This document shows positions 42,795 to 63,988 of a DNA stretch of 64,000 nucleotides, piece by piece. Source of the DNA: Acidimicrobiia bacterium. GTDB taxonomy: Bacteria > Actinomycetota > Acidimicrobiia > IMCC26256 > PALSA-610. How positions within the stretch are numbered: position 1 is the stretch's first letter; the number at the start of each line of letters is the position of its first letter. The notes under the pieces are model-generated. The model had not been told where the DNA came from. It ran no database searches and saw only the letters and a program-made list of their open reading frames with translations. Position numbers and translations under genes: made by a program. The DNA is taken from the NCBI GenBank assembly GCA_036271555.1, contig DATBAK010000084.1, positions 15,053 to 79,052 of the forward strand, written 5' to 3'.

Positions 42795-43844
42795 TCAGGC
42801 GGCGGGCACGGAGCCGTTGCTGCCGGGCGCGAGCGGCAGCACTTCGCCCGGGTTCAGCGGGAAGTGACACGCGACATATTGACCCGTCGCGATCTCCCGG
42901 ATCTCCGGTTCCTGCTGCGCGCACACGTCCTGCGCACGCGGGCAGCGGGTGCGGAAGCGGCAGCCGCTCGGCGGCGCGACCGGCGAGGGGATCTCCCCGC
43001 CGAGCGCGGGGCGGTCGGCGGGCCGGATCGCGGGGTCCGGCACCGGGATCGCGGCCAGCAGCGCGGCGGTGTACGGGTGCGCGGGGCGCTCGTAGATCTG
43101 GTCGGGCGGCCCGACTTCGCAGACCTTGCCGAGGTACATCACGACGACGCGGTCGCTCACGTTCTTCACCACCGCGAGGTCGTGCGCGATGAACACGAGC
43201 GTGAGCCCGTAGCGCTCCTTCATCTCCTCGAGGAGGTTGAGGATCTGCGCCTGGACGGACACGTCGAGCGCGGAGACCGGCTCGTCGCAGATGACGAGCT
43301 TCGGTTCCGTGACGAGCGCCCGCGCGATCGAGATGCGCTGGCACTGACCACCCGAGAATTGGTGCGGGCGCCGGCCGCGCGCCATCGCGGGATCGAGGCC
43401 ACACGCGTCGAGCACTTCGTCGACCTTCGCGGTCTGCGACTTGTCGTCACCGATGTTCCAGATGCGCATGCCCTCCGCGACGATGTCCTCGACCTTGCGC
43501 CGCGGGTTCAGCGACGAGATCGGGTCCTGGAAGATCATCTGGATGCGCGTGCGCATGCGGCGCATGCTCTCGCCGTGCAGCGTCGTGAGGTCGGTGCCGT
43601 CGAAGTCGACCATCCCCGCCGTCGGTGGCGGCAACTGCATGATCGCCTTGCCGGTCGTCGACTTCCCGCAGCCGGACTCGCCGACGAGACCGAGCGTCTC
43701 GCCGGGCATGATGTCGAGGCTCACGTCGGAGACCGCGTACACCTTGAGGCCCGTGCGCCCGATCGGGAACTCGACGACGAGGTGCTCGACGCGCAGCAGG
43801 ACCTCGTCCGCCGGGCGCAGGTGCGCGGTGCCGCTCCCCGCCAT
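42795..43844 (-). CDS. oligopeptide/dipeptide ABC transporter ATP-binding protein (OppF/DppF-like)
   Basis: ATG at 43844 sits in an ATGA overlap. Has Walker A GESGCGKST, signature FSGGQCQR, Walker B LVICDEP, and a C-terminal oligopeptide-type Cys motif region. Confidence 0.9.
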   Translation of the reverse strand: MAGSGTAHLRPADEVLLRVEHLVVEFPIGRTGLKVYAVSDVSLDIMPGETLGLVGESGCGKSTTGKAIMQLPPPTAGMVDFDGTDLTTLHGESMRRMRTRIQMIFQDPISSLNPRRKVEDIVAEGMRIWNIGDDKSQTAKVDEVLDACGLDPAMARGRRPHQFSGGQCQRISIARALVTEPKLVICDEPVSALDVSVQAQILNLLEEMKERYGLTLVFIAHDLAVVKNVSDRVVVMYLGKVCEVGPPDQIYERPAHPYTAALLAAIPVPDPAIRPADRPALGGEIPSPVAPPSGCRFRTRCPRAQDVCAQQEPEIREIATGQYVACHFPLNPGEVLPLAPGSNGSVPAA

Positions 43845-44959
43845 CAGGCGCTCCCCGCCGCGGGCGTCGCCGCAGTGTCGCCGCTCGTGTCGGCGGCGGC
43901 CGGCGACTGGTTGTGCGCGAGCGCGTCGGCTCCCTCGGGGGTGCCGACCGGGTAGAAGCACGCGAACTCGTGACCGGGCGTGCCGCGCGACTCGAGCGGT
44001 GGCTCCTCTTCGTGGCAGCGCGCCTGCGCGTACGGGCAGCGCGGCGCGAAGTTGCAGCCCTTGGGCGGGTGCACGAGATCGGGCGGACGCCCCGCGATCG
44101 AGTCGAGGCGCGAGTGGCTCGGAAGCGCGAGCTTCGGGATCGATTTCATCAGCGCTTCGGTGTACGGGTGGCGCATCTGGCTGAAGAGCGTGCGCGCCGG
44201 CGCCTTCTCGACGATCTTGCCGGCGTACATCACCGCGATGTCGTCGGCGCGTCCCGCCACGACGCCGAGGTCGTGCGTCACGAGGATCATCGCCATGAAC
44301 CGCTCGCGCTGCTGCGTCTGGAGCAGGTCGAGGATCTGCGCCTGCACGGTCACGTCGAGCGCGGTCGTCGGCTCGTCGGCGAACAGCATCTTCGGGCCGC
44401 ACGCGAGCGCGATCGCGAGCATCACGCGCTGCCGCATGCCTCCTGAGAGCTGGAACGAGTACTCGCGCAGTCGCCGCTGCGGCTCGGGAATGCCCACCGA
44501 TTCGAGCAGCGTGAGCGCGGTCTCTTGCGCGTAGTCGCGCGACACGTCGAGGTGGTACCGCAGCGATTCGGTGATCTGCTTGCCCACGCGCATGACCGGG
44601 TTCAGCGCGGTCATCGGGTCTTGGAACACCATCGACATCTCGGTGCCCCAGTAGTGCTGCATCTCCCTCGGGGTCGCGGCGCCGATCTCCCGACCCTCGA
44701 ACTTGATGCTCCCGCCGCGCACGACGTTCCGCTTCGGCAGCAGCCCCATGATCGACTTCGACAGGACCGACTTGCCGCTCCCCGACTCACCGACAATGCC
44801 GAGCGTCTTGCCGCGCTCGAGCGAGAACGACACGCCGTCGACCGCGCGCACGACGCCACGGCCCGTCTTGAAATGGGTGATGACGTTGTGGACCTCGAGC
44901 AGCGGACCGTCGAGCGGTGCGTCGGAGAAGCGCTCGCCCACCTTGCGCTTCGGGCTCAT
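43844..44959 (-). CDS. oligopeptide/dipeptide ABC transporter ATP-binding protein (OppD/DppD-like)
   Basis: Walker A GESGSGKS, signature LSGGMRQR, Walker B LFADEPTTALD. Confidence 0.9.
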   Translation of the reverse strand: MSPKRKVGERFSDAPLDGPLLEVHNVITHFKTGRGVVRAVDGVSFSLERGKTLGIVGESGSGKSVLSKSIMGLLPKRNVVRGGSIKFEGREIGAATPREMQHYWGTEMSMVFQDPMTALNPVMRVGKQITESLRYHLDVSRDYAQETALTLLESVGIPEPQRRLREYSFQLSGGMRQRVMLAIALACGPKMLFADEPTTALDVTVQAQILDLLQTQQRERFMAMILVTHDLGVVAGRADDIAVMYAGKIVEKAPARTLFSQMRHPYTEALMKSIPKLALPSHSRLDSIAGRPPDLVHPPKGCNFAPRCPYAQARCHEEEPPLESRGTPGHEFACFYPVGTPEGADALAHNQSPAAADTSGDTAATPAAGSA

Positions 44960-45894
44960 ACCGCCGACTCCCGCACGTTGAAGCGCGCCTGCACGACGTC
45001 GCCGAGGAAGTTGAGCGACAGCACCGTGAGGAACAACGCGACGATCGGGCCGAACACGAGCCAGGGTTCAGTGTTGAGAACCGACGCCGAGCTCGCGATC
45101 AGATTGCCCCACGACGGCTTGACGGTCGGATCGACGCCGACGCCGAGGAAGCTCAAGCCGCCTTCGGCGACGATCACCACGCCGATCGCGAGCAGCGCGA
45201 TCGACAGCATCGCGGGAATCACGTTCGGTAACACCTCGCGCACCATGATGCGGGCGTTCTTCGCGCCTTGCGCGCGCGCGGCCATCACGAACTCGCGCTG
45301 CGACCACGTGAGCGTGCTCGCGCGCGTGATGCGCCCGAGCACCGGTGTCGACACGGTTCCGAGCGCGATGATCAGCACGATCTCGGCGGGCAGGTGGGAT
45401 TTCGTCGGATCGCCCCTGAGGAACGCCGTGAGCGCAAGGGCGAGGATCAGCGCCGGCACCGCGAGCAGCACGTCGAACACGGTGCTGATGATGAGGTCGA
45501 TCGTGCCTCTGAAGTAGCCGGCGATCAGGCCGAGCGTCCCACCGATCAGGATGCCGGCGAGCACCGAGCCGAGCCCGATCTCGAGCGACGTGCGCGCACC
45601 CAGGACGAGGTTCGAGAACTCGTCGTGGCCGACGTCGTCGACGCCGAGCAGGTGGCCGTGGGTGAACGGCTTCGTGCTCGTGTCGTCGAGAAAGACGGTG
45701 CGGTAGCCGTGGATGCCCGGGAGCAAGGTCCCGAGCACTGCGCCGATCAGCACGAGCGCGAGCCAGATGATCGCGAACCAACCGCCGAAGCCGAGCCGAC
45801 GGTTCGGCGCGACCTCGACCCGGGCGGCCGCGTCGGGCGACCCCTCGGGTTCGGTCAGCAGTTCGGGCGACGCCTCGAAACCGATGGTGCTCAT
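44956..45894 (-). CDS. ABC transporter permease (OppC/DppC-like)
   Basis: HLLGVDDVGHDEFSNLV followed by the EAA-type loop REFVMAARAQGAKNARIMVREVLPN. Confidence 0.9.
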   Translation of the reverse strand: MSTIGFEASPELLTEPEGSPDAAARVEVAPNRRLGFGGWFAIIWLALVLIGAVLGTLLPGIHGYRTVFLDDTSTKPFTHGHLLGVDDVGHDEFSNLVLGARTSLEIGLGSVLAGILIGGTLGLIAGYFRGTIDLIISTVFDVLLAVPALILALALTAFLRGDPTKSHLPAEIVLIIALGTVSTPVLGRITRASTLTWSQREFVMAARAQGAKNARIMVREVLPNVIPAMLSIALLAIGVVIVAEGGLSFLGVGVDPTVKPSWGNLIASSASVLNTEPWLVFGPIVALFLTVLSLNFLGDVVQARFNVRESAV

Positions 45895-51556: not shown

Positions 51557-51612
51557 GGGGATCTGATCGAGTTTGACGACGCTCGCGCGTCGCCTGGCTC
51601 GATCAGATCCCC
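51557..51612. repeat. palindromic repeat family B, copy B2
   Basis: GGGGATCTGATCGAG-tttgacgacgctcgcgcgtcgcctgg-CTCGATCAGATCCCC, with perfect 15-bp arms. Confidence 0.7.
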
Positions 51613-51725
51613 CGTACCCCCGCTTCCCCGTCGCACCCGCGTGCGATCCTGCGCGCGGTTGTCGTCGAATCGACGCGACCCGGCTTCCCCCGTCGATGGT
51701 CTTCGAGCAGAACCGGGAAGCCTCC

Positions 51726-52664
51726 ATGAAGCGACGAATGGCCGACGGCGCGATCGCACGCGTCGCCGCACTGCAACACGGCCTCTTCACGCGCGCCGAC
51801 GCCCACTCGGTGGGCCTCACTGACCGGCAGCTTCGACTGCGCGTCGCGCAGGGTCGGATCGAGCGACTCTCACGGCACGCGTTTCGGATCGCCGGACACC
51901 CGACCACCTGGCGACAGCGGCTACTCGCCGCCTGTCTCGCCGCCGGCCCCGGCGCGGCCGCTTCCCATCGAAGCGCCGCCGCACTCCACCGCTTCGACGA
52001 CTTCGCGCCGGGCGTCGTCGAGATCACCGTGCCGCAAGGTCGACGCGACTTCCGCATGGACGGTGTCATCGTGCACAGCTCCGCGTACTGGGGCGATATC
52101 GACGTGTGCGAGGTCGACGGCATCCCCGTTTCGACTCCGGAACGCACGCTCTGCACGCTCGCGGCGGTGACCGACGAGGCGCGCGTCGAACACGCGCTCG
52201 ACGGTGCGGAACGCGACGGCACCGTCAGGCGAGAGGACGTCGCCGAAGCGCATGCCGACGTTCGCGAGCGGGGCCGCAATGGCGTCGCTGCGCTCGGACG
52301 ATTGCTCGAGAAGCGCGCCGACCTGTTGGCAACGCCGCACAGCGTGCTCGAACGACGGTTCCTGCGCGTGCTCGAGGAGCACAACCTTCCGCGGCCCGAG
52401 TGCCAGGTTCCGGTGCGACGGCCCGACGGCCGGATGGCGTATCTCGACTCCGGCTATCCCGATCTGCGTCTCTTCTTCGAGCTCGACGGCAACGTCGCGC
52501 ACGCGACGCCGGCACAGCGATCCGCCGACAACGTGCGCGCCAACGCGCTCGGCTTGCGCGACATTCGCATCGTGCGGTTCACGTATGAGCAGGTCGTCCA
52601 CCAGCCCGAGATGGTCGCGACAACGGTGCGCGCACACCTTCGCGAGCGGCGACGGGCGGCGTGA
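51726..52664 (+). CDS. AbiEi-like N-terminal domain / DUF559 (Vsr-like endonuclease fold) protein
   Basis: GLFTRADAHSVGLTDRQLRLRVAQGRIERL is the AbiEi_4-type wHTH. The C-terminal ...LERRFLRVLEEHNLPRPECQV...DGNVAH...D..R.N.L...G..IVRFTYEQV is the DUF559 pattern. ATG at 51726 follows GGGAAG. Earlier in-frame starts are possible. Confidence 0.7.
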   Translation: MKRRMADGAIARVAALQHGLFTRADAHSVGLTDRQLRLRVAQGRIERLSRHAFRIAGHPTTWRQRLLAACLAAGPGAAASHRSAAALHRFDDFAPGVVEITVPQGRRDFRMDGVIVHSSAYWGDIDVCEVDGIPVSTPERTLCTLAAVTDEARVEHALDGAERDGTVRREDVAEAHADVRERGRNGVAALGRLLEKRADLLATPHSVLERRFLRVLEEHNLPRPECQVPVRRPDGRMAYLDSGYPDLRLFFELDGNVAHATPAQRSADNVRANALGLRDIRIVRFTYEQVVHQPEMVATTVRAHLRERRRAA

Positions 52665-52725: not shown

Positions 52726-52778
52726 CAGGTGGCCTCCCGAAACTGACGGGCGTGTCATGTGCGTGGCAGGATGCGGAC

Positions 52779-53756
52779 GTGACCGATCGACCGAAAGCGC
52801 TGGTGACGGCGCCGTTCCGCGGCGAAGGACTCGACACGCTTCAGGGTCTCGCCGACGTCGTGCTCGATCCTTGGATCGACCAGCCGACGCTCCGTTTGTA
52901 CAAAGCCGAGCAGCTCGCGGAACGGGTGCGGCAGGAGGGCGCGACGATCCTGATCGTCGAGTCCGACTCCGTGAAGGGACCCGTCTTCGACTGCGACCTC
53001 ACGGTCATCGGCTCCTGCCGCGGCGACCCGAACAACGTCGACATCGAAGGCGCGACGAAGGCCGGGATCCCCGTCCTGCGCGCGCCCGGACGCAACGCCG
53101 ACGCCGTCGCGGAGATGACCGTCGCACTCCTCTTCGCGACCAACCGCTTCATCGTCGCCGCGGACCGCGACGTCAGAGCCGAGCAGGTGTACGCGGGCGG
53201 CAAGATCCCCTACCAGCGCTTCCGCGCCTGGCAACTCGCCGGGCGCACCGCCGGCGTCGTCGGACTCGGCGCGGTCGGGCGCGCGACGAAGTGGCGCCTC
53301 GAAGGCCTCGGCATGAAGGTCATCGCCTACGACCCGTACAACTCCGAAGCGACGCACTCGCTCGACGACCTGCTCGCGGAGTCGGACGTGGTGTCGATGC
53401 ACGCGATGGTGACGCCCGAGACGACGGGTCTGATCGGCGCCGCGCAGTTCGCGAAGATGAAGCCCGGCTCGATCTACGTCAACTCGGCGCGCGCCGCGCT
53501 GCACGACACCGACGCGCTCGTCGCGTCGTTGCAGTCGGGTCATCTCGGCGGCGCCGGTCTCGACCACTTCGTCGGGGAGCACCTGCCGAAGGATCACCCG
53601 CTCTGCTCGATGGACAACGTCGTGCTGACACCGCACATCGGCGGCGCGACCTACGACACCGAGGCGAACCACTCGAAGCTCATCGCCGACGACGTGCGAC
53701 GCATCCTCGCCGGCGAGAAGCCCGTCAACTGCGTCAACCCGGAGGTGCTCGCCTGA
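52779..53756 (+). CDS. D-isomer-specific 2-hydroxyacid dehydrogenase (PGDH-like)
   Basis: NAD motif GVVGLGAVGRA and the catalytic region SMHAMVTPET...NSARAAL...TPHIGGAT. The start is uncertain: GTG at 52779 was chosen, and GTG at 52752 is also in frame. Confidence 0.8.
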   Translation: MTDRPKALVTAPFRGEGLDTLQGLADVVLDPWIDQPTLRLYKAEQLAERVRQEGATILIVESDSVKGPVFDCDLTVIGSCRGDPNNVDIEGATKAGIPVLRAPGRNADAVAEMTVALLFATNRFIVAADRDVRAEQVYAGGKIPYQRFRAWQLAGRTAGVVGLGAVGRATKWRLEGLGMKVIAYDPYNSEATHSLDDLLAESDVVSMHAMVTPETTGLIGAAQFAKMKPGSIYVNSARAALHDTDALVASLQSGHLGGAGLDHFVGEHLPKDHPLCSMDNVVLTPHIGGATYDTEANHSKLIADDVRRILAGEKPVNCVNPEVLA

Positions 53757-54412
53757 TGGCGACGAAGCTCACGGCCCAGGAGACGAAGGAAATGCTCCTG
53801 GCGACCGCGAAGGAGATGATCGCCAAGGGTCTCGTGGAGGGCACGGCCGGCAATTTGTCGGCACGTTTGCCCGACGGAAACGCAGTACTCACGCCGTCGT
53901 CGCTCGCGTACGAGACGATGACGCTCGACGACCTCGTCGTGTGCGACCTCGACGGCAACGTCCTCGAAGGCACGCGCAACCCGACGACCGAGAAGGCGTT
54001 GCATCTCGGGTGCCTGCGGAAGCACGAGGACATCAACGCCGTCATTCATTCGCACGCGATGCACTGCACGATGTTCGCGGTCACGCACCAACCGATCCCG
54101 TGTGTGATCGAGGAGTTCGACGTGTACGTCGGCGGTGACGTGCCGGTCGCGAACTACAAGGTCACCGGCTCGGACGACCTCGGTGAAGAGGTCTCGAACT
54201 GGGTCGCCGACCGCGCCGCGGTGTTGATGGCGAACCACGGGCTTCTGACCGTCGGCAAGGACCCGCAGGACGCGCTGAAGATCGCGATGCTGGTCGAGCG
54301 CACGGCGCGGATCATCTGGGGAGCCAAGTTCATCGGCGAGCTCGTGCCGTTGCCGGATTCGACGATGAAGAAGTTCGCACCGATCTACAAGTTCCTCCGC
54401 TCCCAGGGCTGA
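53756..54412 (+). CDS. class II aldolase/adducin family protein
   Basis: GTAGNLSAR, HSHAMHCT and ANHGLLTVG. The ATG overlaps the upstream TGA by 1 nt. Confidence 0.85.
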   Translation: MATKLTAQETKEMLLATAKEMIAKGLVEGTAGNLSARLPDGNAVLTPSSLAYETMTLDDLVVCDLDGNVLEGTRNPTTEKALHLGCLRKHEDINAVIHSHAMHCTMFAVTHQPIPCVIEEFDVYVGGDVPVANYKVTGSDDLGEEVSNWVADRAAVLMANHGLLTVGKDPQDALKIAMLVERTARIIWGAKFIGELVPLPDSTMKKFAPIYKFLRSQG

Positions 54413-54474
54413 GCCGCACCGCCGCGGCTCCGTCGGCCGCACGACCGGTCGCGCCGCCGACCAGGGCTTTCTCG

Positions 54475-54524
54475 GATCTGATCGAGAAAAGTGACGCCCG
54501 CGCGTCACCCAACTCGATCAGTTC
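54475..54524. repeat. palindromic repeat family B, copy B4
   Basis: GATCTGATCGAG-aaaaGTGACGCccgCGCGTCACccaa-CTCGATCAGTTC. The right arm overlaps the last codons and the stop of the convergent O-methyltransferase gene. Confidence 0.7.
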
Positions 54525-55183
54525 GCAGACCGCTTGCGGAGGAGGGTGAGGCCGTCGGAGACGGGGAGCATGACGGCGTCGACGCGGGGATCGCTCGCGA
54601 CCAGATCGTTGAACGCGCGGATCGCGACCGCGTTGTCGCTCTGATCCGAGTCGTCGACGACGCGCCCGCTCCACAACACGTTGTCGACCATCAACAACCC
54701 GTTCGGCCGCAGCCTCCGAACCAGCTGTTCGAAGTAGGCCGGGTAGTTCGGCTTGTCGGCGTCGATGAACGCGATGTCGATCGTCTCCTCTTCCGGCAAC
54801 TTCGACAACGTGTCGACCGCGGGCGCGATCACGAGATCGATCCGGTCCGCGACACCCGCGCGTTCCCAATGCGCGCGCCCGATCGACGTCCACTCCTCGC
54901 TCACGTCGCAACACAACAACCGGCCGCCCCGGACCAACCCGCGCGCGATGCACAGCGCGGAGTAGCCGGTGAACGTCCCGACCTCGACGGCCGAACGCGC
55001 CCCCACCAACTGCGTGAGCATCGTCATGAACGCGCCCTGCTCGGGCGCGATCTGCATCCCCGACACCGCTCCCAACGACGCGGTCGCCTCGATCAGCGAC
55101 TGCTGAATCGTGTCTGGCCGTTGCCCGTGATCGAGCAGGTACTCGTGGATCTCGGGCGATAGGAAGAACGACTTCGGGCTCAT
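54518..55183 (-). CDS. class I SAM-dependent O-methyltransferase (caffeoyl-CoA OMT-like, family 3)
   Basis: ATG at 55183. Contains VEVGTFTGYSALC, FIDADKPNY and DNVLWSG. The ORF-track start at 55378 is rejected. Confidence 0.85.
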   Translation of the reverse strand: MSPKSFFLSPEIHEYLLDHGQRPDTIQQSLIEATASLGAVSGMQIAPEQGAFMTMLTQLVGARSAVEVGTFTGYSALCIARGLVRGGRLLCCDVSEEWTSIGRAHWERAGVADRIDLVIAPAVDTLSKLPEEETIDIAFIDADKPNYPAYFEQLVRRLRPNGLLMVDNVLWSGRVVDDSDQSDNAVAIRAFNDLVASDPRVDAVMLPVSDGLTLLRKRSAN

Positions 55184-55397
55184 TTCCGCACCGTACACAG
55201 GAACGCAGGAGTCGACGCGTGCACGTCGCACGCACCTCACGCCGGCCTCGAGGCAGTTGTGGTGCGCGCTGCCCACTCTTCCTGGCGGGACCTCGCAGGT
55301 TGCGGTCCGCGACGAGAAACGACTTCGGAGGTCGCGTCGCAGGCACGCTCGGAAGCCGAAGCCGGCGTCACCACGCAACGCAAACCTCTCTGCGTAG

Positions 55398-55427
55398 CTG
55401 ACACGAACGTCAGTCAGCGTTTACCAT
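55398..55427 (+). promoter_or_regulatory. candidate promoter (-35 CTGACA, -10 TACCAT) overlapping a shared operator-like box CTGACACGAACGTCAG
   Basis: The box lies at 55398-55413. TACCAT at 55422-55427 sits 18 nt after CTGACA and about 47 nt upstream of the GTG at 55474. The same 15-mer recurs at 62326-62340. Confidence 0.35.
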
Positions 55428-55473
55428 CCCGACACCCGCAGGCCCGGGGGGCCGCCTGCAATCCGGAGACCGC

Positions 55474-57693
55474 GTGACCGATCTGCAATCAGCCGGCCAG
55501 CCCGAGGGCAGCGCCGCTTCGCTCGCCGCCACCGTGCTCGACGAGGAGGCCGCCCGCCAGGCGGCCCAGGCTCGCGCCAAGGAACAGATCATCTTCCCGG
55601 ACGACCTGCTTCCCGGCGTCAATTCCGAGCCGATCGATTTCAAGGACGCGTTCGCCAAGGGCGGCGTCTTCATGTTCGTGGTGCTGGGCCTGCTGATCTC
55701 CCTCGACCAGCTCACCCTGAACGCGGTCCAGACGCTCGAGCCCGAGCTGCGCTCGACGTTCCACATCAGCAGCGGCTCGGTCGTGTTCATCACGTCGGCG
55801 TCGAGCCTCTTCTACGCGCTGGGCGCGGTCCCGATGGGTTGGCTCGCCGACCGGATGAAGCGGGTGCCGATCGTCGCGTGCGCGAGCCTGGTGGCGGCGC
55901 TCTGCACGTTCCTCTCCGGACTGGCCGGCAGCGCGTTCGTCTTCTTCTGGATCGTCTGCGCCACCGGCATCGCGAAGGCGGACGGCATCGCGGTACACCA
56001 GCCGCTCCTGGCCGACAACTATCCGATCGGCATCCGGGCTCGGATGTCGGCCGCCCTGAACATCGGCCAGCAGGTGCTCGGGAACATCAGCCCGGTACTC
56101 GTCGGCGCGATCGCAACCTGGGTCGGAGGCAAGGAAGGCTGGCGCTGGGCGTTCTTCGTGCTCGGCATTCCGGGCGGCATCGTCGCGATCGCAGCGTTCT
56201 TCATGCGTGAGCCCCCGCGCGGACAGTACGAGAAGGACGACGTCCTCGGCGAGGTCATCGAGGACGAGAACCCGATGCAGCCGTCGATGGAGGCCGCGTT
56301 CGCGAGGCTGAAGAAGATCGCCACGGTGCGCACGTCGATCGCCGCGTTCGCGGCGCTCGGTTTCGGAATCTTCGCGCTCGGCAGCCTGCAGGTGCTCTAC
56401 CTGAACGACACGCTGCACGTCACCAACACGTTGCACCGCGGATTCATCCTCAGTCTGGCCGGCTGGTCCGCGGTCCCGTTCCTCTATCCGGTCGGCCGCT
56501 ACTTCGACCGCACCTACCGGAAGAATCCGGCGAAGGCGCTCACGCTCGTCGGGCTGCTCATCCTGCCGTCCGCGCTGTTCACGCCGTTGCAGGTGTCGAC
56601 GCACAGCACGACGATGTTCGTCATCTGGGGCATCCCGCAGGCGGTGCTCACGGCGTGCGCGTTCGCGATGGTCACGCCGGTGCTGCAGGCCGTGTGCCCG
56701 TACCGGCTCCGCGGGCTCGGGATCGCGATGGGCGTGATGTACATCGTGTTCATCGGCGGATTCGGCGGCGCGATCCTCGCCGACTTCTTCACCAACTCTT
56801 TCGGTGTGCGCACGACCGTGTTCATCCTCCTGGTGCCGACCAGCATCATCGGCAGCCTCCTCCTGATGAACGGCGCCCGGTTCATCCGCCACGACCTCTC
56901 GCTCGTCGTCGAGGAACTCCTCGAAGAACAAGAGGAGCAACGCAAGCGCTCGGTCGAAGGCGCCAGCACTCCGGTGCTGCAAATGGTCAACACCGACTTC
57001 TCCTACGGTCCCGTACAGGTCCTGTTCGACGTCAACTTCGAGATCCATCGCGGTGAATGCGTCGCCCTGCTCGGCACGAACGGCGCGGGCAAGTCGACGA
57101 TTCTGCGCTGCATCAGCGGGCTCGAGGTGCCCGAGCGTGGAGTCCTGCGACTCCACGGTCGCAACATCACGTTCGTCGCCCCGGAGCAACGCGTGAAGCA
57201 CGGGATCGTGCAGCTTCCCGGCGGGAAGGGCGTGTTCCCCAGCCTCACGGTCATGCAGAACCTCACCGTCGCGGCGCGGCTACGCGGCGGCACGAGTGAC
57301 GAGCTCGAGGCCCGCATCGCGAACGTGCTCGAACTGTTCCCCGAGCTCGCCGAACGGCCCAAGCAGCAGGCGCGGAGTCTCTCCGGCGGCCAGCAGCAGA
57401 TGCTCGCACTCAGCCGGGCGCTGATGCAGGAGCCCGAGATCCTCTTGATCGACGAGCTCTCGCTCGGCCTCGCGCCCGTCATCGTCCAGCGGCTGCTCGA
57501 GCTCGTCGACCAGCTCCGCGCCCGCGGCCAGACCATGATCATCGTCGAACAGTCGTTGAACGTCGCCCTCGCGATCTCCGACCGGGCCATCTTCCTGGAA
57601 AAGGGTCAGGTCAAGTTCGAAGGTGACGCACAGGAGCTCATGGAGCGCGACGACCTCGCCCGCGCGGTCTTCTTCGGCACCGAAGGCGGCTGA
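55474..57693 (+). CDS. chimeric MFS-transporter domain fused to LivF-type ABC ATPase
   Basis: Residues ~60-470 contain about 12 hydrophobic helices and MFS motif A (GWLADRMKRVP). An acidic linker follows (EELLEEQEEQRKR). The C-terminal NBD has Walker A GTNGAGKST, signature LSGGQQQM and Walker B LLIDELSLGLAP (LivF-like). Confidence 0.8.
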   Translation: MTDLQSAGQPEGSAASLAATVLDEEAARQAAQARAKEQIIFPDDLLPGVNSEPIDFKDAFAKGGVFMFVVLGLLISLDQLTLNAVQTLEPELRSTFHISSGSVVFITSASSLFYALGAVPMGWLADRMKRVPIVACASLVAALCTFLSGLAGSAFVFFWIVCATGIAKADGIAVHQPLLADNYPIGIRARMSAALNIGQQVLGNISPVLVGAIATWVGGKEGWRWAFFVLGIPGGIVAIAAFFMREPPRGQYEKDDVLGEVIEDENPMQPSMEAAFARLKKIATVRTSIAAFAALGFGIFALGSLQVLYLNDTLHVTNTLHRGFILSLAGWSAVPFLYPVGRYFDRTYRKNPAKALTLVGLLILPSALFTPLQVSTHSTTMFVIWGIPQAVLTACAFAMVTPVLQAVCPYRLRGLGIAMGVMYIVFIGGFGGAILADFFTNSFGVRTTVFILLVPTSIIGSLLLMNGARFIRHDLSLVVEELLEEQEEQRKRSVEGASTPVLQMVNTDFSYGPVQVLFDVNFEIHRGECVALLGTNGAGKSTILRCISGLEVPERGVLRLHGRNITFVAPEQRVKHGIVQLPGGKGVFPSLTVMQNLTVAARLRGGTSDELEARIANVLELFPELAERPKQQARSLSGGQQQMLALSRALMQEPEILLIDELSLGLAPVIVQRLLELVDQLRARGQTMIIVEQSLNVALAISDRAIFLEKGQVKFEGDAQELMERDDLARAVFFGTEGG

Positions 57694-60600
57694 TGCTCGC
57701 CTCGTTCTTCCAGCCTCAGATCACGACTGCAAACCTGCTGTTCATCGGCGTGGTGCAGGGGTTGATCATCTCGGTGCTCGCAATGGCAATCGTGCTGATC
57801 TACCGGTCGACGCGCATCATCAACTTTGCAGTCGCCGACATCGGCCTCCCCGCGGCCGCGCTCCTCGCGGTCATGGTCGTCAATTCGCACTTCCCGTATT
57901 GGCTCGCCTTCACGCTCGCGCTGCTCACCACCACGGCCGCCGGCGCCGTGATCGAGATGGTGGTCATCCGGCGGCTCGCGAAGGCGCCCCGCGTCATCGT
58001 GCTCGTTGCAACCATCGGCGTCGCCGAACTCATGCAGGCGGTCGTGCGCACGCTGCCCGAATACCAGGCCGGAAGGTTCCAGACGACCTTCCCGACGCCC
58101 ATGAGCTCGCAATGGACGATCTCGTCGCTCTTCCATCTCAGCGTCGCCGGCGTCCACCTGCAGATGACGAACATCGTGGTCACCGGTCCGCAGGTCCTCG
58201 CGCTGATCGTCGTACCGATCGTGACGGTCGGGCTGTGGTGGCTCCTCGGCCACACCGTCTTCGGTGAATCGGTCCGTGCCTCGGCGACCAATCCCGACCT
58301 CGCGCGTCTCACGGGCATCAGCCCGAAGCTGATGTCGACCGCGATCTGGACGATCGGGGGACTGCTGTCGGGCGTCGCGCTCGTGCTCTACGCGACACAG
58401 AGCGGCACGACCGACCTCGTGCAAGTCGGTCCGGAGACGTTGTTGCTCGCGCTGACGGCGGCGTTGATCGGCGGCATGACGTCGTTCCCGCGCACCGTTG
58501 CCGGCGCGGTCGGCGTCGGCCTGCTCTATCAAGTGCTGCTGTACAACTTCCCGAACACACCGGGCCTGGTCGAGTTCGTGCTGTTCATCCTCGTGCTGGC
58601 TCTCGTCGCCCGCATCAGCCGAGCCGACGCGACGACCACCGACACCTTCTCCTTCGCGCCACGCGTGCCTCCCGTGCCCGAACACCTCCGCGAGCTGTGG
58701 TGGGTACGGCGCATGCCCAACCTCGTGGCATGGATCGCGCTCGCCGTCGCGATCGTCGTTCCGCTCGTCACCACGTCGTCGGCGCACCATCAGGCGTACG
58801 CCTTGATCCTGGCGACCGCGATCATCACGGTCTCGGTCACCGTGCTCACCGGCTGGGCCGGTCAGCTCTCGCTCGGGCAGGCCGCGTTCGCCGGCGTGGG
58901 CGCGCTGATCGCGGGCACGCTCGTGCGCGGTGCGACGCTCAACATCGGCTTCCGCTCACACCGGCTCGCCGCCGGCGCGGTGCGTCCGTTTCCGATGGCC
59001 GCCGGCTTGCTCCTCGTCGTGCTCGCGGCGGTCGCGATCAGCACCACCGTGGCGCGGCGCCGCAGCAGGCGAGTCCGCGCGATCGCGGCCTCGGCGGCGG
59101 TGCTCTGCATCGCGGTCGGCGCGGTCGTGTTCCCGGCCGCCATCGACCGATCCGGCACCGTGCACCGCGTGCCGTTCGTCCTCGCGTTGTTCCTCGGCGG
59201 CGCGGTCAGCAGCATCTTTGCCGCCGCGGTCGGCATCGGCGCGCTCCGTGTGCGCGGGCTCCTGCTCGCGATCAGCACGATGGCCTTCGCGATCGCAGCC
59301 GAGGTGTACATCTTCCCCCGCCCGCTCTTCGTCGGCCTGGAAGGCTCGACGAGCGGCGAGCTCGACCGGGGCAAGCTGGGACCGGTCGACCTGACGTTCC
59401 ACAACCGCGCGTACTACTACTTCGCGCTCGGCGTCCTGGTGCTCGTGCTCCTACTGGTCGGGCACCTGCGGCGAACGGGCATCGGCCGCGCGATCGTCGG
59501 CGTCCGCGAGAACGAGGCGGGAGCGGCTGCGTTCACCGTGTCGCCGACGCGAGCGAAGCTCACGTCGTTCGCGGTCGCCGGCTTCGTCGCGGGACTCGGC
59601 GGCGGTGTCCTCGCGGGAGCAGTCCAGAACTTCGACTACACGAACGCGTTCTTTCGCGTCGAAGACTCCCTCTCCCTCGTCGCCATCGCCGTGATCGGCG
59701 GCCTGGGCAGCCTGGCCGGCGCGGTGACGGGCGCGTTGTGGGTCGTCGGCCTTCCGCTGTTCTGGCCGAAGAACGACACGGTGGAGTTGCTCACCTCGAG
59801 CATCGGACTGCTCATCGTGTTGCTCTACGTCCCGGGTGGCTTCACCCAGCTCGGGTACGCCGCGCGCGGCCACATCCTGCGCTGGGTCGAGCAGCGATTG
59901 CCCGAGCGGCCGGCGAAGACCGTCACGGCCCCACCGGTCTCGCTCTCGGTGCGCGCGACCACCCCCCCGCCGACGAACGGTGACGGCAGCGCGCTGCGCA
60001 CGATCGGGCTCGACGTCGAGTTCGACGGCATCGTCGCGGTGAACAATGTCGACTTCCACGCCATGCCGGGAGAGGTGATCGGCCTCATCGGCACGAACGG
60101 CGCGGGCAAGTCCACGCTCTTGAACGCGATCGGCGGCTACGTGCCGAGTCGGGGCAAGGTCGAACTGCTCGGCGGCGACGTCTCGGGACACGCGGCGTAC
60201 CTCCGTGCCCGGGCCGGGCTCGGCCGCACGTTCCAGGCCGCGACGTTGTTCCCCGAGCTGACGGTCCGCGAGACCGTGCAACTGGCGCTCGAAGCGCGCG
60301 GGCGCACATCGTTCTGGGGCTCGTTGCTGTTCTATCCCGGGTCGATCGCCAAGGAGCGCACGCGGCGCGCCGAGGCCTCCGAGCTCATCGACTTCCTCGG
60401 GCTCGGCCGCTACGCCGACCGGTTCATCGTCGAGCTCTCGACGGGCACTCGTCGCATCGTCGAGCTGACGTCGATGCTCGCGGTGCGTCCCCGCGTCATC
60501 TGCCTCGACGAGCCGACGGCCGGTGTTGCGCAGCGCGAGGCCGAGGCGTTCGGACCGCTCATCAAGCGGATCCAGAACGAGCTCGAGGCGACGCTCATCG

Positions 60601-60791
60601 TCGTCGAGCACGACCTGCCGCTCATCATGTCGATCAGTGACCGCATCTACTGCCTGGAGGCAGGCGGCGTGATCGCGCACGGCGAGCCCGAGACGGTTCG
60701 TTCGAACCCCCTCGTCGTCGCGTCGTACCTCGGTACCGACGACCGCGCGATCCAGCGCTCGAACGCCGACGCGAACCCGGCGACCGTGTAG
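57693..60791 (+). CDS. triple fusion LivH-like permease / LivM-like permease / LivG-like ABC ATPase
   Basis: The ATG overlaps the upstream TGA (TGATG). The first ~300 aa are LivH-like (GVVQGLIISVLAMAIVLIY). The middle ~400 aa are LivM-like (TGWAGQLSLGQAAFAGVGA). The C-terminal NBD has Walker A GTNGAGKST, an atypical signature LSTGT, and Walker B VICLDEPTAGV. Confidence 0.85.
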   Translation: MLASFFQPQITTANLLFIGVVQGLIISVLAMAIVLIYRSTRIINFAVADIGLPAAALLAVMVVNSHFPYWLAFTLALLTTTAAGAVIEMVVIRRLAKAPRVIVLVATIGVAELMQAVVRTLPEYQAGRFQTTFPTPMSSQWTISSLFHLSVAGVHLQMTNIVVTGPQVLALIVVPIVTVGLWWLLGHTVFGESVRASATNPDLARLTGISPKLMSTAIWTIGGLLSGVALVLYATQSGTTDLVQVGPETLLLALTAALIGGMTSFPRTVAGAVGVGLLYQVLLYNFPNTPGLVEFVLFILVLALVARISRADATTTDTFSFAPRVPPVPEHLRELWWVRRMPNLVAWIALAVAIVVPLVTTSSAHHQAYALILATAIITVSVTVLTGWAGQLSLGQAAFAGVGALIAGTLVRGATLNIGFRSHRLAAGAVRPFPMAAGLLLVVLAAVAISTTVARRRSRRVRAIAASAAVLCIAVGAVVFPAAIDRSGTVHRVPFVLALFLGGAVSSIFAAAVGIGALRVRGLLLAISTMAFAIAAEVYIFPRPLFVGLEGSTSGELDRGKLGPVDLTFHNRAYYYFALGVLVLVLLLVGHLRRTGIGRAIVGVRENEAGAAAFTVSPTRAKLTSFAVAGFVAGLGGGVLAGAVQNFDYTNAFFRVEDSLSLVAIAVIGGLGSLAGAVTGALWVVGLPLFWPKNDTVELLTSSIGLLIVLLYVPGGFTQLGYAARGHILRWVEQRLPERPAKTVTAPPVSLSVRATTPPPTNGDGSALRTIGLDVEFDGIVAVNNVDFHAMPGEVIGLIGTNGAGKSTLLNAIGGYVPSRGKVELLGGDVSGHAAYLRARAGLGRTFQAATLFPELTVRETVQLALEARGRTSFWGSLLFYPGSIAKERTRRAEASELIDFLGLGRYADRFIVELSTGTRRIVELTSMLAVRPRVICLDEPTAGVAQREAEAFGPLIKRIQNELEATLIVVEHDLPLIMSISDRIYCLEAGGVIAHGEPETVRSNPLVVASYLGTDDRAIQRSNADANPATV

Positions 60792-60827: not shown

Positions 60828-62285
60828 CTACTTGGACAGGTTCTCGTACGGGGTCAGCGGCTTCCAGTTGCCGTTCGGCGGCAGCGCCGAGTCGAACTGC
60901 TGCAGCTGGAAGGTGTCGTCGTCGTCGTACTTGCCCTGCGACAACGACGCGTACGGGCCGCCGCCGCGGTTGACGATCGGGCCGAACGAATTGACGGCGG
61001 CAACCCAGTTGGGCACGTTCACGTACTGGCCCGTCTTGGCGACGATCTCGGCGAACGTCGAGATCATCTGACACGCGTCGTTGATGGTGTTGTAGGTCTC
61101 GTCGGTGTACTCCTTGCCGCCGACCTTGACCTTGCGAACGGTCAGGGGTCCGGGCGGGGTCCTGCCGGTCGCGGCCTTGTAGATCCCGGAGCAGTACTTC
61201 CAGTTGTCGCTCTTCGCGTAGTCCGCGGCCGCAAAGCCCCCGGCGATATACATGTCCTGGTACGGGTTCGGGTCCATGCCGGCCTTGGTCTCGTCCTGCC
61301 CCTGCGCCAGCGCGTCGCCCGTGTCGGTCATCAGCATCACGCCCGGCAGCTGCTTCGTCACCTTCTCGACGAACTGCTTCGTCACGGTGTTCTCGCCCGT
61401 GACGAAGATCGCATTGACCCCTTCGGACTTCCACCGCTGGATGAAGCTGTCGAGCTGCGACTGCGCCGCGGTCGTGTCGGCACCGTTGATCGTGAGGTAC
61501 GCGGTGGTTCCCGTCGCGACGCCGGTCTTCTTGATCGCCGGCAGCACGGCCGCCTTCACCGACACCTGGGAGGTCTGGTCCGCCAGCACCGCGAGCTTCT
61601 TCCCCTTGAGGAGGTGCTGCTTCTGCAACAGCTCGAACAGCACGCCCGACGATCGCTCCGGTGTCGTGCCCGGGAAGATCAACATCGCCGGTGGAACCTG
61701 ACCGATCATCGCCTGAGTCACGTCGAACGTGATGAGGGGAGTGTTCTTCTTCTTCGCGATGCACGTGTGGATCGCATCGTCCTGGGCCGCGTCACTCAGG
61801 TTGCCGAGGACCGCGAAGACCTTGTCGTCGTCGGTGAAGTGGGTGCAGATCTGCACGAGGAGGTCGCTCGTCGAGGTGAGCGGGCATTCGGTGTTGAAGT
61901 CGGCGACCAGCTTGCGGCCGTTGATGCCGCCGCCCTTGTTCACCGCGTCGACGAAGTCCTGATAGATCGCTTGCTGGTTCGGACGCGTGAAGTCGATGAA
62001 CTGCTGGATGCACTTGAAGTCGATCAGCGAGATGCCGATCTTGATCGAGTCTGCGGTCACGCCCGAACCGAGCGTCTTCGACGTGACGCTCGGCGAGTTC
62101 GTTCCGGGCTTGGCGCCCGTCCCGGCCTTCGAGCCACTGCTCCCGCACGCGGCGAGGATCATCGCCGCGATGACGACGACCAGGACGCCTCGGCTCCAAC
62201 GGGTCTGACGCGGGAACTCACGTTGACCAGCGTCGCCCGGCACCCGACGACCGCGTCCCTGACCACGTCGCTGTGCTTCACGCAT
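60828..62285 (-). CDS. ABC transporter substrate-binding lipoprotein (LivJ / Peripla_BP_6-like)
   Basis: ATG at 62285 follows GGGGGG. Has a lipobox (ILAACGSS) and a type I periplasmic-binding fold pattern (IKIGISL..., VFAVLGN..., KLAVLADQ...). It is convergent with the permease gene. Confidence 0.8.
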   Translation of the reverse strand: MREAQRRGQGRGRRVPGDAGQREFPRQTRWSRGVLVVVIAAMILAACGSSGSKAGTGAKPGTNSPSVTSKTLGSGVTADSIKIGISLIDFKCIQQFIDFTRPNQQAIYQDFVDAVNKGGGINGRKLVADFNTECPLTSTSDLLVQICTHFTDDDKVFAVLGNLSDAAQDDAIHTCIAKKKNTPLITFDVTQAMIGQVPPAMLIFPGTTPERSSGVLFELLQKQHLLKGKKLAVLADQTSQVSVKAAVLPAIKKTGVATGTTAYLTINGADTTAAQSQLDSFIQRWKSEGVNAIFVTGENTVTKQFVEKVTKQLPGVMLMTDTGDALAQGQDETKAGMDPNPYQDMYIAGGFAAADYAKSDNWKYCSGIYKAATGRTPPGPLTVRKVKVGGKEYTDETYNTINDACQMISTFAEIVAKTGQYVNVPNWVAAVNSFGPIVNRGGGPYASLSQGKYDDDDTFQLQQFDSALPPNGNWKPLTPYENLSK

Positions 62286-62319
62286 CTCAGAACCCCCCGG
62301 TTCGGCGCCCTCGCCGCGC

Positions 62320-62349
62320 ACTCTATGACACGAACGTCAGCAAAGTCAC
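62320..62349 (-). promoter_or_regulatory. candidate promoter (-35 GTGACT, -10 TAGAGT) with the shared box in its spacer
   Basis: Minus strand reads GTGACT-TTGCTGACGTTCGTGTCA-TAGAGT. The plus-strand 15-mer TGACACGAACGTCAG (62326-62340) is identical to 55399-55413. It lies about 35 nt upstream of the ATG at 62285. Confidence 0.35.
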
Positions 62350-62389: not shown

Positions 62390-63988
62390 TCAAGCCAGTG
62401 CGACCAGGTCCAAGAGATCGTCGGACCAGTAGTCGAGGGTGCCGTCGGGCATGAGCAGGACCCGCTGGGGCGCGAGCTCGGCGACGAACTCGGTGTCGTG
62501 GCTCACGAACACCATCGCCCCCTTCCAGCCCCGCAGCGCGGCGCCGACCGCCAGGCGCGACGGCGGGTCGAGGTTGTTCGTGGGCTCGTCGAGCAGCAGC
62601 AGGTTGTGGCGGCCCGCGACGAGCATCGCGAGCGCGAGCTTCGTCTTCTCGCCGCCCGAGAGCGTCGCGACGTCCTGGAACGCCATCTCGCCCGAGAGCC
62701 CGAACATGCCGAGCAGCGCGCGCATCTGCTGGTCGGAGAGGCCCATCGCGGCCGCGGTCTCGCGCATGTGGTCGAGCATCGAGCGGCCCGGTACGAGCAG
62801 CTCGTGCTCCTGCGCGTAGTAGCCCATCGAGACGCCGTGACCGAGATGGTGCTCGCCGAGGTCGGTTTCGAGCTGACCGACGAGCAGCCGCAACAACGTG
62901 GTCTTGCCCGCACCGTTGAGACCGAGGATGAGCAGCCGCTCCCCTCGCCCGACGCTGAACGACACGTCCTCGAACACGGTGTTCGCGCCGAACGACTTGG
63001 CGAGATCCGACGCTTCGAGCACCGTCGCGCCGGAGCGCGGCGGGTCGGGCAGCCGCACCGCGAGCTTCCGCTCCTTCTTCGCGGCCGTGACCTTCGTGGT
63101 CTCGAGCCGCTCGACGCGGTGGTCGAGCACCTTCGCGAGCCGCGCCCGCTTCGCGGTCTGGCCCCGCATCGAGTCGGCGAGCGCGCTGAGCCGATGGATC
63201 TCGGCCTCCTGCCGGCCCGCGAGCTTCGTCCGCCGCTCCTCGTCGGCCGCGCGCGCGGTCCGGTACTGCGAGTAGGTGCCGCGGTACTCGATGAGCTCAC
63301 CCTCGTCGAGGTGCAGGACGCGCGTGATCGCCTGGTCGAGCAGCACGAGGTCGTGGCTCACCACGAGCAGCGCGCCGCGATACGAGCGCAGGAAGCCCAT
63401 GAGCCACTGCTTGGCGTCGACGTCGAGGTGGTTCGTCGGCTCGTCGAGCATCAGCAGGTCGCTGCCCGCGAACAGGATGCGCGCGAGCTCGACGCGCCGA
63501 CGCTCACCGCCCGAGAGGGAGTGGATCGCCATGTCGAGACGGTCGCTGCGCAGGCCCAGGCCGGCGGCGATGCGCCGCACCTCCGACTCGGCCGAGTACC
63601 CGCCGAGGCGCTCGAACTCCTCCTGCGCGTCGGCGAAGCGGCGGAGGTTGCGCTCCGACGGGTTCTCGTCGACCTCGGCGTGGCGCTTCTCGAGCCGCTG
63701 CGCGATCACGTCGAGCCCGCGGCCCGAGAGCACGTGCGAGACGCCGGTCGAGTCGACGCCCGCGCCATGCGGTTTCGGGTCCTGCGGCAGGTAGCCGATG
63801 CGATCGCCCCGCGACACGACGCCGGCCGCGGCGGGCGCCTCCCCGCCGAGCACTCTGAGCAGCGAGGTCTTCCCGGCGCCGTTGCGCCCGACGAGACCCG
63901 CCTTGTCGCCCGGCCGCAAGGTGAACGAGCCGCCGACGAGCGTGAGGCGGCCGCCGACTTCGACGGCGAGATCGCGGACCTGGAGCAC
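62390..63988 (-). CDS. ABC-F family ATPase (two NBDs, no TMD)
   Basis: Two Walker A sites (GRNGAGKTS, GLNGAGKTT) and two signatures (LSGGERRR, LSGGEKTK), separated by a charged linker (RTARAADEERRTKLAGRQEAE). GTG start at 63988. Confidence 0.9.
   Translation of the reverse strand: MLQVRDLAVEVGGRLTLVGGSFTLRPGDKAGLVGRNGAGKTSLLRVLGGEAPAAAGVVSRGDRIGYLPQDPKPHGAGVDSTGVSHVLSGRGLDVIAQRLEKRHAEVDENPSERNLRRFADAQEEFERLGGYSAESEVRRIAAGLGLRSDRLDMAIHSLSGGERRRVELARILFAGSDLLMLDEPTNHLDVDAKQWLMGFLRSYRGALLVVSHDLVLLDQAITRVLHLDEGELIEYRGTYSQYRTARAADEERRTKLAGRQEAEIHRLSALADSMRGQTAKRARLAKVLDHRVERLETTKVTAAKKERKLAVRLPDPPRSGATVLEASDLAKSFGANTVFEDVSFSVGRGERLLILGLNGAGKTTLLRLLVGQLETDLGEHHLGHGVSMGYYAQEHELLVPGRSMLDHMRETAAAMGLSDQQMRALLGMFGLSGEMAFQDVATLSGGEKTKLALAMLVAGRHNLLLLDEPTNNLDPPSRLAVGAALRGWKGAMVFVSHDTEFVAELAPQRVLLMPDGTLDYWSDDLLDLVALA

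Follow-up and report, generated by a model that had tools for sequence, protein, structure and literature searches.

Transporters of the major facilitator superfamily (MFS) and ATP-binding cassette (ABC) transporters form the two largest transporter superfamilies and are the textbook cases of different energy coupling. Among the ABC importers, the HAAT family (TC 3.A.1.4), represented by Escherichia coli LivJ/K-HMGF and by UrtABCDE, is built from two permease domains of LivH and LivM size, nucleotide-binding domains (NBDs) of both the LivG/UrtD and the LivF/UrtE type, and a substrate-binding protein (SBP) of the Peripla_BP_6 family. Regulatory domains added to the ATPases of importers are well known, as in MalK, the C2 domain of MetN, ModC, the NrtA-like C-terminal domain of NrtC and the CBS domains of OpuA, and these can gate NBD dimerisation when a ligand or a physical signal is perceived. 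Here we present the computational analysis of an importer locus in a 64,000-nucleotide stretch, termed the window, of contig DATBAK010000084.1 from the Acidimicrobiia bacterium assembly GCA_036271555.1, in which two adjacent open reading frames, ORF1 and ORF2, are followed by a convergent SBP gene. The module is a binding-protein-dependent importer of the HAAT (Liv/Urt) family, comprising the SBP, a LivH-LivM-LivG polypeptide (ORF2) and a LivF-type ATPase (ORF1). It shares with the Liv and Urt systems the two permease domains, both NBD types, the Peripla_BP_6 SBP, the glutamine in the H-loop of the LivF-type NBD and the non-canonical signature of the LivG-type NBD. It differs from them in that LivH, LivM and LivG share one chain, whereas LivF carries at its N-terminus a tail, an MFS domain of 12 transmembrane (TM) helices and an acidic stalk. 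As in MalK, MetN, ModC, NrtC and OpuA, an SBP-dependent importer has one of its NBDs joined covalently to an additional domain; in those proteins, however, the addition is soluble and C-terminal to the NBD, while here it is N-terminal and has a full polytopic transporter fold.

What appears to be new in this locus is a HAAT-type ABC importer with an obligate MFS module, the proteins themselves being already present in public databases, where the fused ones are labelled merely as "ATP-binding protein" or "MFS transporter" or bear automatic dual-COG names. The first-pass annotation, made from the sequence of the window, could not say whether the architecture had been characterised before; no account of a fusion of MFS-LivF or MFS-ABC type was found in the full-text literature searched, a body of text that includes few subscription journals and leaves TCDB and InterPro outside its scope. 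PMC3924187 proved irrelevant on checking.

The MFS-LivF fusion is obligate and ancient. With ORF1 as query, at least 120 clusters were obtained among the matches listed (74–95% identity), each of about 739 aa and with both Pfam domains, and with the orthologue from locus L016 (46% identical) at least 120 additional fused clusters from Acidimicrobiales and Acidimicrobiaceae were retrieved. The fused clusters in the two clades total more than 240, all of about 730–750 aa, and the identity of their MFS part falls to 28–35%. A scan of GTDB species gave 19 loci with the fused gene at 93% to 43% identity, one of them broken inside the gene by a contig end. Cluster look-ups identified cultured carriers in the Actinomycetes (Jiangella alba, WP_069109893.1; J. 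muralis; Jiangella sp. DSM 45060) and in the Acidimicrobiia (Ilumatobacter fluminis, WP_166657336.1); the fusion is conserved across many Actinomycetota and abundant in soil and freshwater Acidimicrobiia.

It had been asked at the outset whether a frameshift or misassembly might have joined two separate genes. Frameshifts elsewhere in some loci of long-read metagenome-assembled genomes (MAGs; L014, L015, L017) could be cited in favour of such an origin and otherwise nothing, while the recurrence of one architecture in more than 240 independent clusters, the presence of the fusion in the isolate genomes of Jiangella and Ilumatobacter, and six close orthologues with a common GTG start, exactly 739 codons and zero indels refute it for practical purposes. 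The junction region is, besides, the most conserved segment of the ORF1 protein outside the NBD. When the MFS part alone was searched against 1.84 billion representatives, a small family of 161 clusters emerged at E<=1e-30, in which all matches spanning to the C-terminal end of the domain are proteins of about 700–750 aa, and these representatives yielded no intact relative of stand-alone or split form. The entries P0176, P0240, P0143, P0135, P0158, P0183 and P0171, considered as stand-alone or split members, were rejected as frameshifted or truncated reads; the sequence of P0176 runs on into the first NBD strand.

Membership of the HAAT family is evident from the domain content of the two polypeptides. 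ORF2 contains two stretches of BPD_transp_2 (PF02653; E=4.6e-52), which rank as UrtB/LivH and then LivM/UrtC in NCBIfam, followed by an NBD that matches ABC_tran and the LivG-specific BCA_ABC_TP_C (PF12399; 30.2 bits against a cutoff of 25.5), has LivG (E=2.3e-55) and UrtD as best NCBIfam models and is 35% identical to E. coli LivG. The order LivH, LivM, LivG proposed for ORF2 in the first-pass annotation is thereby borne out. In ORF1, ABC_tran is matched at residues 518–661 (E=2.7e-29), the best NCBIfam models are UrtE (1.4e-55) and LivF (4.5e-52), and the closest structure to the NBD is 1ji0 (TMt 0.92). Every score lies far below the corresponding LivFGHM or UrtBCDE equivalog cutoff, which would denote specificity for branched-chain amino acids or urea: this holds for the permease domains (LivH 43.1 vs 379, UrtB 66.9 vs 250.3, LivM 60 vs 366), and likewise for the ORF1 NBD (LivF 176.9 vs 441, UrtE 188.3 vs 285.8) and the ORF2 NBD (LivG 187.6 vs 362, UrtD 171.4 vs 304.1).

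The condensation of a Liv importer into two polypeptides, as it was first described, holds for the window with its LivHMG chain and its MFS-LivF chain, while the LivG fusion is not constant among relatives. Locus L025 (29-14203 of a 4.2-Mb Acidimicrobiia contig) carries two paralogous MFS-LivF systems in tandem, the first with LivHM (670 aa), a separate LivG (255 aa) and an SBP, the second with LivHMG as one fused chain and an SBP that is divergent. Hence it is the MFS-LivF fusion that is constant, the LivG fusion being optional, and the tandem represents a natural experiment on which fusions are essential.

The N-terminal domain of ORF1, read from the start as an MFS transporter domain, matches Pfam MFS_1 with 124.8 bits against a cutoff of 33.4 (E=4.8e-36, residues 77–370) and has 12 predicted TM helices, which AlphaFold2 (AF2) arranges in a 6+6 layout; the full-length ORF1 model has a predicted local distance difference test (pLDDT) score of 75 and a predicted TM-score (pTM) of 0.63. 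The model of the MFS part only (residues 1–499; pLDDT 74.5, pTM 0.72) could be superposed end to end by Foldseek on DgoT, Spns2, FLVCR1, G6PT1, GlpT and sialin, with TM-scores of 0.74–0.82 over 410–455 columns at 13–19% identity, whereas the whole-chain search of ORF1 against the PDB was dominated by the NBD and uninformative on the MFS domain. Subfamily profiles of DgoT (TIGR00893) and PgtP were matched over their full length, TIGR00893 with 72.6 bits and hence below its cutoff of 395. Judging from sequence and predicted fold, this is a complete MFS domain of an orphan lineage. It resembles the DgoT, sialin/SLC17, GlpT/G6PT, Spinster/Spns2 and FLVCR families in its 12-TM 6+6 fold and in motif A of loops 2–3 and 8–9. 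It departs from the DgoT type in its sub-cutoff profile score despite the end-to-end match, and from all of these families in its low identity and in having a conserved N-terminal tail and a C-terminal stalk into an ABC ATPase, with no intact stand-alone form among the representatives searched.

A conservation map of 39 sequences from two clades was used to locate the constrained parts of ORF1. Motif A, GWLADRMKRVP (residues 122–132, nt 55837–55869), lies in the loop between TM2 and TM3 and has an internal Gly replaced by Lys; its residues D126, R127 and R130 are invariant, and D345, R346 and R349 of the motif-A repeat in the loop between TM8 and TM9 are conserved in at least 92%. Invariant residues are also found in loop 4–5 (D181, Y183, P184, R188 and R190) and loop 10–11 (P409, Y410, R411 and R413), and the intracellular helices of the domain are likewise rich in them; the invariant positions thus cluster in the cytoplasmic gating network, which motif A and its repeat preserve in both halves of the domain. 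Polar residues of the cavity helices, namely D78 in TM1, Q306 in TM7 and Q389 in TM10, are invariant or nearly so; DgoT, too, carries an acid side chain in TM1. The periplasmic loops are short and lack conservation; the cytoplasmic face is conserved and basic. In comparisons with six orthologues the ratio of nonsynonymous to synonymous substitution rates (omega) is 0.10–0.19 for the MFS domain and 0.075–0.15 for the NBD, so the MFS domain is kept by purifying selection. Between clades its identity is 32–37% vs 57–66% for the NBD, a divergence about equal to that of the LivH membrane domain of ORF2 (37–43%). The domain resembles a working module, and the low omega and the conserved polar residues of the cavity helices lend indirect support to putative solute translocation.

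The link between the two halves of ORF1 is the next constrained element. In both AF2 models the TM12 helix carries on to residue 495–498 and the first NBD strand begins from residue 502; with a pLDDT of only about 60–68 in the connector, the continuous helix is a moderate-confidence prediction. Connector residues 472–488 (RHDLSLVVEELLEEQEE) hardly vary where overall identity is as low as 43% and form an amphipathic acidic helix extending TM12, the net charge across residues 472–489 being -6. The distance from the start of TM12 to R472 is 27 residues in 39/39 sequences, and the acidic helix measures 17 residues in every one of them; the hinge of 12–13 residues ahead of the NBD is variable in sequence. 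On the other side of the domain, the motif D43-x-x-L-P-G-V49 of the N-terminal tail (omega 0.11–0.33) is invariant and stands precisely 21 residues from TM1 in all 39. Passive tethers usually drift in length and sequence. Connector and N-terminal tail are constrained in a way that is unlike a passive tether, because both their sequence and their spacing are fixed across the 39 sequences.

With reference to the ATPase domains, ORF1 has the Walker A motif GTNGAGKST, the canonical signature LSGGQ (within LSGGQQQM) and a Walker B with its glutamate (LLIDE); its H-loop has Gln instead of His (VEQS), aligning with VEQN of E. coli LivF, and the catalytic glutamate E661 is retained. In ORF2 the Walker A, Q-loop, Walker B glutamate, D-loop and H-loop histidine are intact, and the signature reads LSTGT (nt 60435–60449), in which the S and G of the signature are retained. 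The H-loop Gln of ORF1 and LSTGT of ORF2 fall in one composite site, formed by the ORF1 Walker A with the ORF2 signature. This site appears to be non-consensus and the other canonical. The first-pass annotation had described LSTGT as degenerate and had proposed an asymmetric pair of ATP sites. The motif and the asymmetry are indeed present, whereas the signature does not reflect decay, LSTGTRRIVEL being invariant in 15 of the 15 orthologues examined, nor is it special, and a direct alignment with E. coli K-12 LivG (LAYGD) and LivF (MSGGE and VEQN) ruled it out as a distinguishing feature. As far as the alignment indicates, the asymmetry exists, yet it was inherited with the HAAT family at large and is in no way specific to this locus, because E. 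coli LivFG has the same arrangement.

The role of the MFS domain, which according to the first-pass annotation might be a second substrate pathway, an exchanger for a product or a transceptor-like sensor gating ATPase activity, can be approached from what is fixed and what varies across the family. With a probability of roughly 45%, we take the domain to be a third membrane module of the complex, integral and conformationally active, which is in allosteric communication with the ATPase dimer and most likely senses or carries something common to all members, because the fusion is obligate, the stalk and N-terminal tail are invariant, a basic cytoplasmic face lies opposite an acidic stalk and the cavity residues are fixed. 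The domain would then be neither a passive anchor nor merely a co-localised transporter; its rocker-switch state would be coupled to the opening and closure of the LivF/LivG dimer via the fixed-length stalk and the conserved basic cytoplasmic face. It would most likely bind a common ligand, be it a proton (via D78), an ion or a shared co-substrate, and not the variable imported solute, given that the cavity residues are fixed while the SBPs diverge strongly. In the reading that we prefer, it would gate or modulate ATP-driven import by that ligand or by the proton-motive force. Several points weigh against such integration. The ORF1 models are of a single chain, and contacts of the MFS domain with LivHM or with the NBD are putative; the low pLDDT of the stalk and the variable hinge residues leave room for some flexibility; motif A and cavity conservation would be equally expected of an independent, tethered proton-coupled transporter; packing constraints could also explain the fixed length of the linker; and the argument from SBP diversity is indirect. 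The main rival, tentative and less probable, is that two independent transporters were joined for co-localisation and fixed stoichiometry in the Rosetta-stone manner, where the ABC part would import by ATP and the MFS part, using the proton-motive force, could export a catabolic product, act in exchange or give low-affinity, high-capacity uptake. The autonomous kit of the MFS domain (12 TM helices, both motif-A copies, the TM1 Asp and the polar cavity residues), the purifying selection on it and the variability of the 12–13 residues ahead of the NBD are all consistent with this, and MFS domains fused to functionally linked partners are known, e.g. LplT-Aas. On the other hand, a self-sufficient transporter without any intact stand-alone or split relative among 1.84 billion representatives would be unusual, the connector keeps its sequence and its length across 28–47% overall divergence, unlike passive tethers, the conserved motif of the N-terminal tail has no role in an ordinary MFS protein, and the MFS cavity stays fixed while the SBPs, and presumably the substrates, diverge. 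The data speak more for a coupled, integral module than for an independent transporter on a loose tether, without deciding between them.

Stronger forms of coupling are also conceivable. We regard as unlikely a true primary/secondary hybrid, in which the ABC ATPase cycle, acting via the TM12 stalk of fixed length, drives the MFS rocker-switch mechanically or gates it obligatorily, or the ATPase is gated by the proton-motive force via the MFS domain. No more likely than this, and perhaps slightly less so, is the proposition that the MFS domain is itself a primary-active pathway, whose alternating access would be driven by NBD dimer closure via the TM12 stalk and which would possibly be the true route of the SBP-delivered solute or of a counter-flux. 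A length-invariant helical link from the last TM helix into strand beta-1 of the NBD, recalling the continuity of TM6 with the NBD in type IV exporters, points in this direction, as do the obligate fusion and the pairing of a conserved basic cytoplasmic face with an acidic stalk. Type IV exporters such as TM287/288 and ABCB1 are alike in the last TM helix running into the NBD, and their heterodimers pair a consensus ATP site with a deviant one; their membrane fold is nevertheless unrelated, a whole-chain Foldseek comparison giving an rmsd above 20 A with the NBD alone aligned, and the present system is an SBP-dependent importer. An ATP-driven MFS route is further opposed by the retention of a full LivH/LivM pair with normal sizes and motifs, so that a conventional ABC pathway exists, by the attachment of a single NBD, and only to the MFS C-domain, and by the short unconserved periplasmic loops, which argue against SBP docking on the MFS domain; to our knowledge it has no precedent. 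Least probable of these is an inert membrane anchor or scaffold that holds an otherwise soluble LivF beside LivHMG. In its favour, LivF is the sole subunit left unfused in the two-polypeptide design, and from clade to clade the MFS domain changes more quickly than the NBD; its 12 helices, two intact motif-A networks and invariant polar residues in the cavity helices would be unnecessary for that purpose, its omega is near the NBD value, and its divergence is about that of the ORF2 LivH membrane domain.

The role of a rocker-switch domain bolted to an ABC ATPase is a question outside the current transport classifications. A conformational coupling of the two, if it exists, would amount to a new principle of regulation or energetics, for example dual energisation, gating by a ligand or by the proton-motive force, or MFS transport driven by ATP; should the hybrid reading hold, the complex would be the first MFS pathway powered by ATP or, the other way round, an ABC importer with an ATPase gated by the proton-motive force. 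The compact three-gene operon in the cultured Jiangella alba and Ilumatobacter fluminis makes the system testable. No solved structure matching the LivHM membrane part was detected in a sequence search of the PDB, and a stable two-polypeptide complex would offer the first membrane-domain structure of the HAAT type.

Table 1 Features of the MFS-LivF importer locus, with positions counted from the first nucleotide of the window.
Feature	Position	Strand	Remarks
Promoter-like site CTGACA-18-TACCAT, sigma-70-like, weak	55398..55427	+	1 site vs 0.5 expected by chance
Shine-Dalgarno GGAG	55465..55468	+	5 nt ahead of the ORF1 GTG; from sequence
ORF1, MFS-LivF fusion protein	55474..57693	+	739 aa; GTG start
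N-terminal tail, cytoplasmic, residues 1-59 of ORF1	55474..55650	+	predicted helix 13-37; D43-x-x-L-P-G-V49
12-TM MFS domain, residues 60-470 of ORF1	55651..56883	+	Pfam MFS_1, AF2, Foldseek, conservation, omega
Connector, residues 471-500 of ORF1	56884..56973	+	predicted TM12 helix extension, then hinge
LivF/UrtE-type NBD, residues 501-739 of ORF1	56974..57693	+	Pfam, NCBIfam, motifs, structure match
ORF2, LivH-LivM-LivG fusion	57693..60791	+	1032 aa; ATG start; TGATG translational coupling to ORF1
LivH/UrtB-like membrane domain, ORF2 residues ~1-310	57693..58622	+	BPD_transp_2 at 16-303; UrtB, LivH models
LivM/UrtC-like membrane domain, ORF2 residues ~335-755	58695..59957	+	second BPD_transp_2 stretch; LivM, UrtC models
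LivG/UrtD-like NBD, ORF2 residues ~765-1032, BCA_ABC_TP_C tail	59985..60791	+	Pfam, NCBIfam, motifs
Lipoprotein SBP, divergent Peripla_BP_6 member	60828..62321	-	convergent with ORF2; listed ORF 497 aa

The positions, sizes and strands of the open reading frames given in the first-pass annotation were matched exactly (Table 1), and each of the motifs it had quoted (GWLADRMKRVP, GTNGAGKST, LSGGQQQM, LLIDE and LSTGT) was located, along with the acidic segment EELLEEQEEQ. The TGATG coupling was likewise recovered, the ORF1/ORF2 junction reading GGC-TGA-TG-CTC with one base common to the stop and start codons. Six orthologues of ORF1 keep its GTG start and its N-terminus VTDLQ, and the weak promoter-like site falls within a 95-nt gap 5' of ORF1. 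A search for riboswitches or leader RNAs around the module returned only one chance match below threshold.

The convergent lipoprotein gene, which had been called LivJ-like, encodes a Peripla_BP_6 protein (PF13458; 39.3 bits against a cutoff of 31.7) whose signal peptide ends in the lipobox ILAAC, the true start probably being nearer the signal peptide than that of the listed reading frame. It differs from the E. coli Liv system in being a lipoprotein without BLAST-level similarity to LivJ or LivK, and no match was obtained for it in a sequence search of the PDB. An SBP adjoins the translocator genes in every related locus long enough to show one; across the systems these SBPs are all lipoproteins with low-complexity tethers and have just 21–40% mutual identity. 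In L002, L003, L005, L010 and L017 two or three SBP paralogues, about 40% identical to one another, stand in tandem 3' of ORF2, where the window has one, which suggests that in relatives several binding proteins supply a single translocator.

In the closest clade the gene order is dehydrogenase, aldolase, O-methyltransferase (-), MFS-LivF, LivHMG, one to three SBPs (-) and an ABC-F gene (-). In L024, L025, Jiangella alba and Ilumatobacter fluminis the flanks are unrelated, yet the SBP, MFS-LivF and LivHM(G) genes remain together, and in Jiangella alba and Ilumatobacter fluminis they form a three-gene operon on the same strand with overlapping genes. In the window, 52752–55378 holds D-2-hydroxyacid-dehydrogenase-like, class II aldolase/adducin-like and divergent Methyltransf_3 O-methyltransferase genes, whose synteny with the transporter is confined to the close clade and which in L012 lie on the other side in the opposite orientation. 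Directly downstream of the SBP, at 62390–63988 (-), an ABC-F protein with two ABC_tran domains and ABC_tran_Xtn is encoded, probably an unrelated translation factor; its synteny with the module extends to L002, L003, L005, L008, L010, L014, L015 and L017 and not to the distant clades. The neighbouring genes gave no lead to the substrate: conservation of the flanks does not extend beyond the closest clade, and Jiangella, Ilumatobacter and L024/L025 have unrelated ones.

In Jiangella alba (L026:1-18241) the module stands in a same-strand cluster with genes for an amidase, an alpha/beta-hydrolase, a short-chain dehydrogenase/reductase, a pyridoxal phosphate-dependent decarboxylase/aminotransferase and hydantoinase A/B, with a copper amine oxidase, an aldehyde dehydrogenase and an AsnC regulator upstream of it; this hints at a link of the Jiangella member to amide or amine nitrogen catabolism. 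The Ilumatobacter module is flanked by TetR, sulfatase and rhamnosidase genes.

No further MFS, LivHM or SBP paralogue was found within the rest of the window. Another pair of ABC ATPase domains is encoded at 43083–44983 (-), about 11 kb upstream and 26–29% identical to the Liv-type NBDs, and a 363-aa reading frame lies at 51573–52664 (+), 5' of the dehydrogenase gene. The high GC content gives rise to many overlapping spurious reading frames on both strands across this region. In the long-read MAG loci L014, L015 and L017, tblastn matches to ORF1, ORF2 and their neighbours are split across frames; these frameshifts look like assembly errors, and the records are not to be taken for pseudogenes. 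L013 and L020, from MAGs labelled Burkholderiales, carry ORF1 and ORF2 orthologues 72–79% identical to Acidimicrobiia proteins in the same synteny, a placement most likely due to faulty binning or contamination and not to horizontal transfer.

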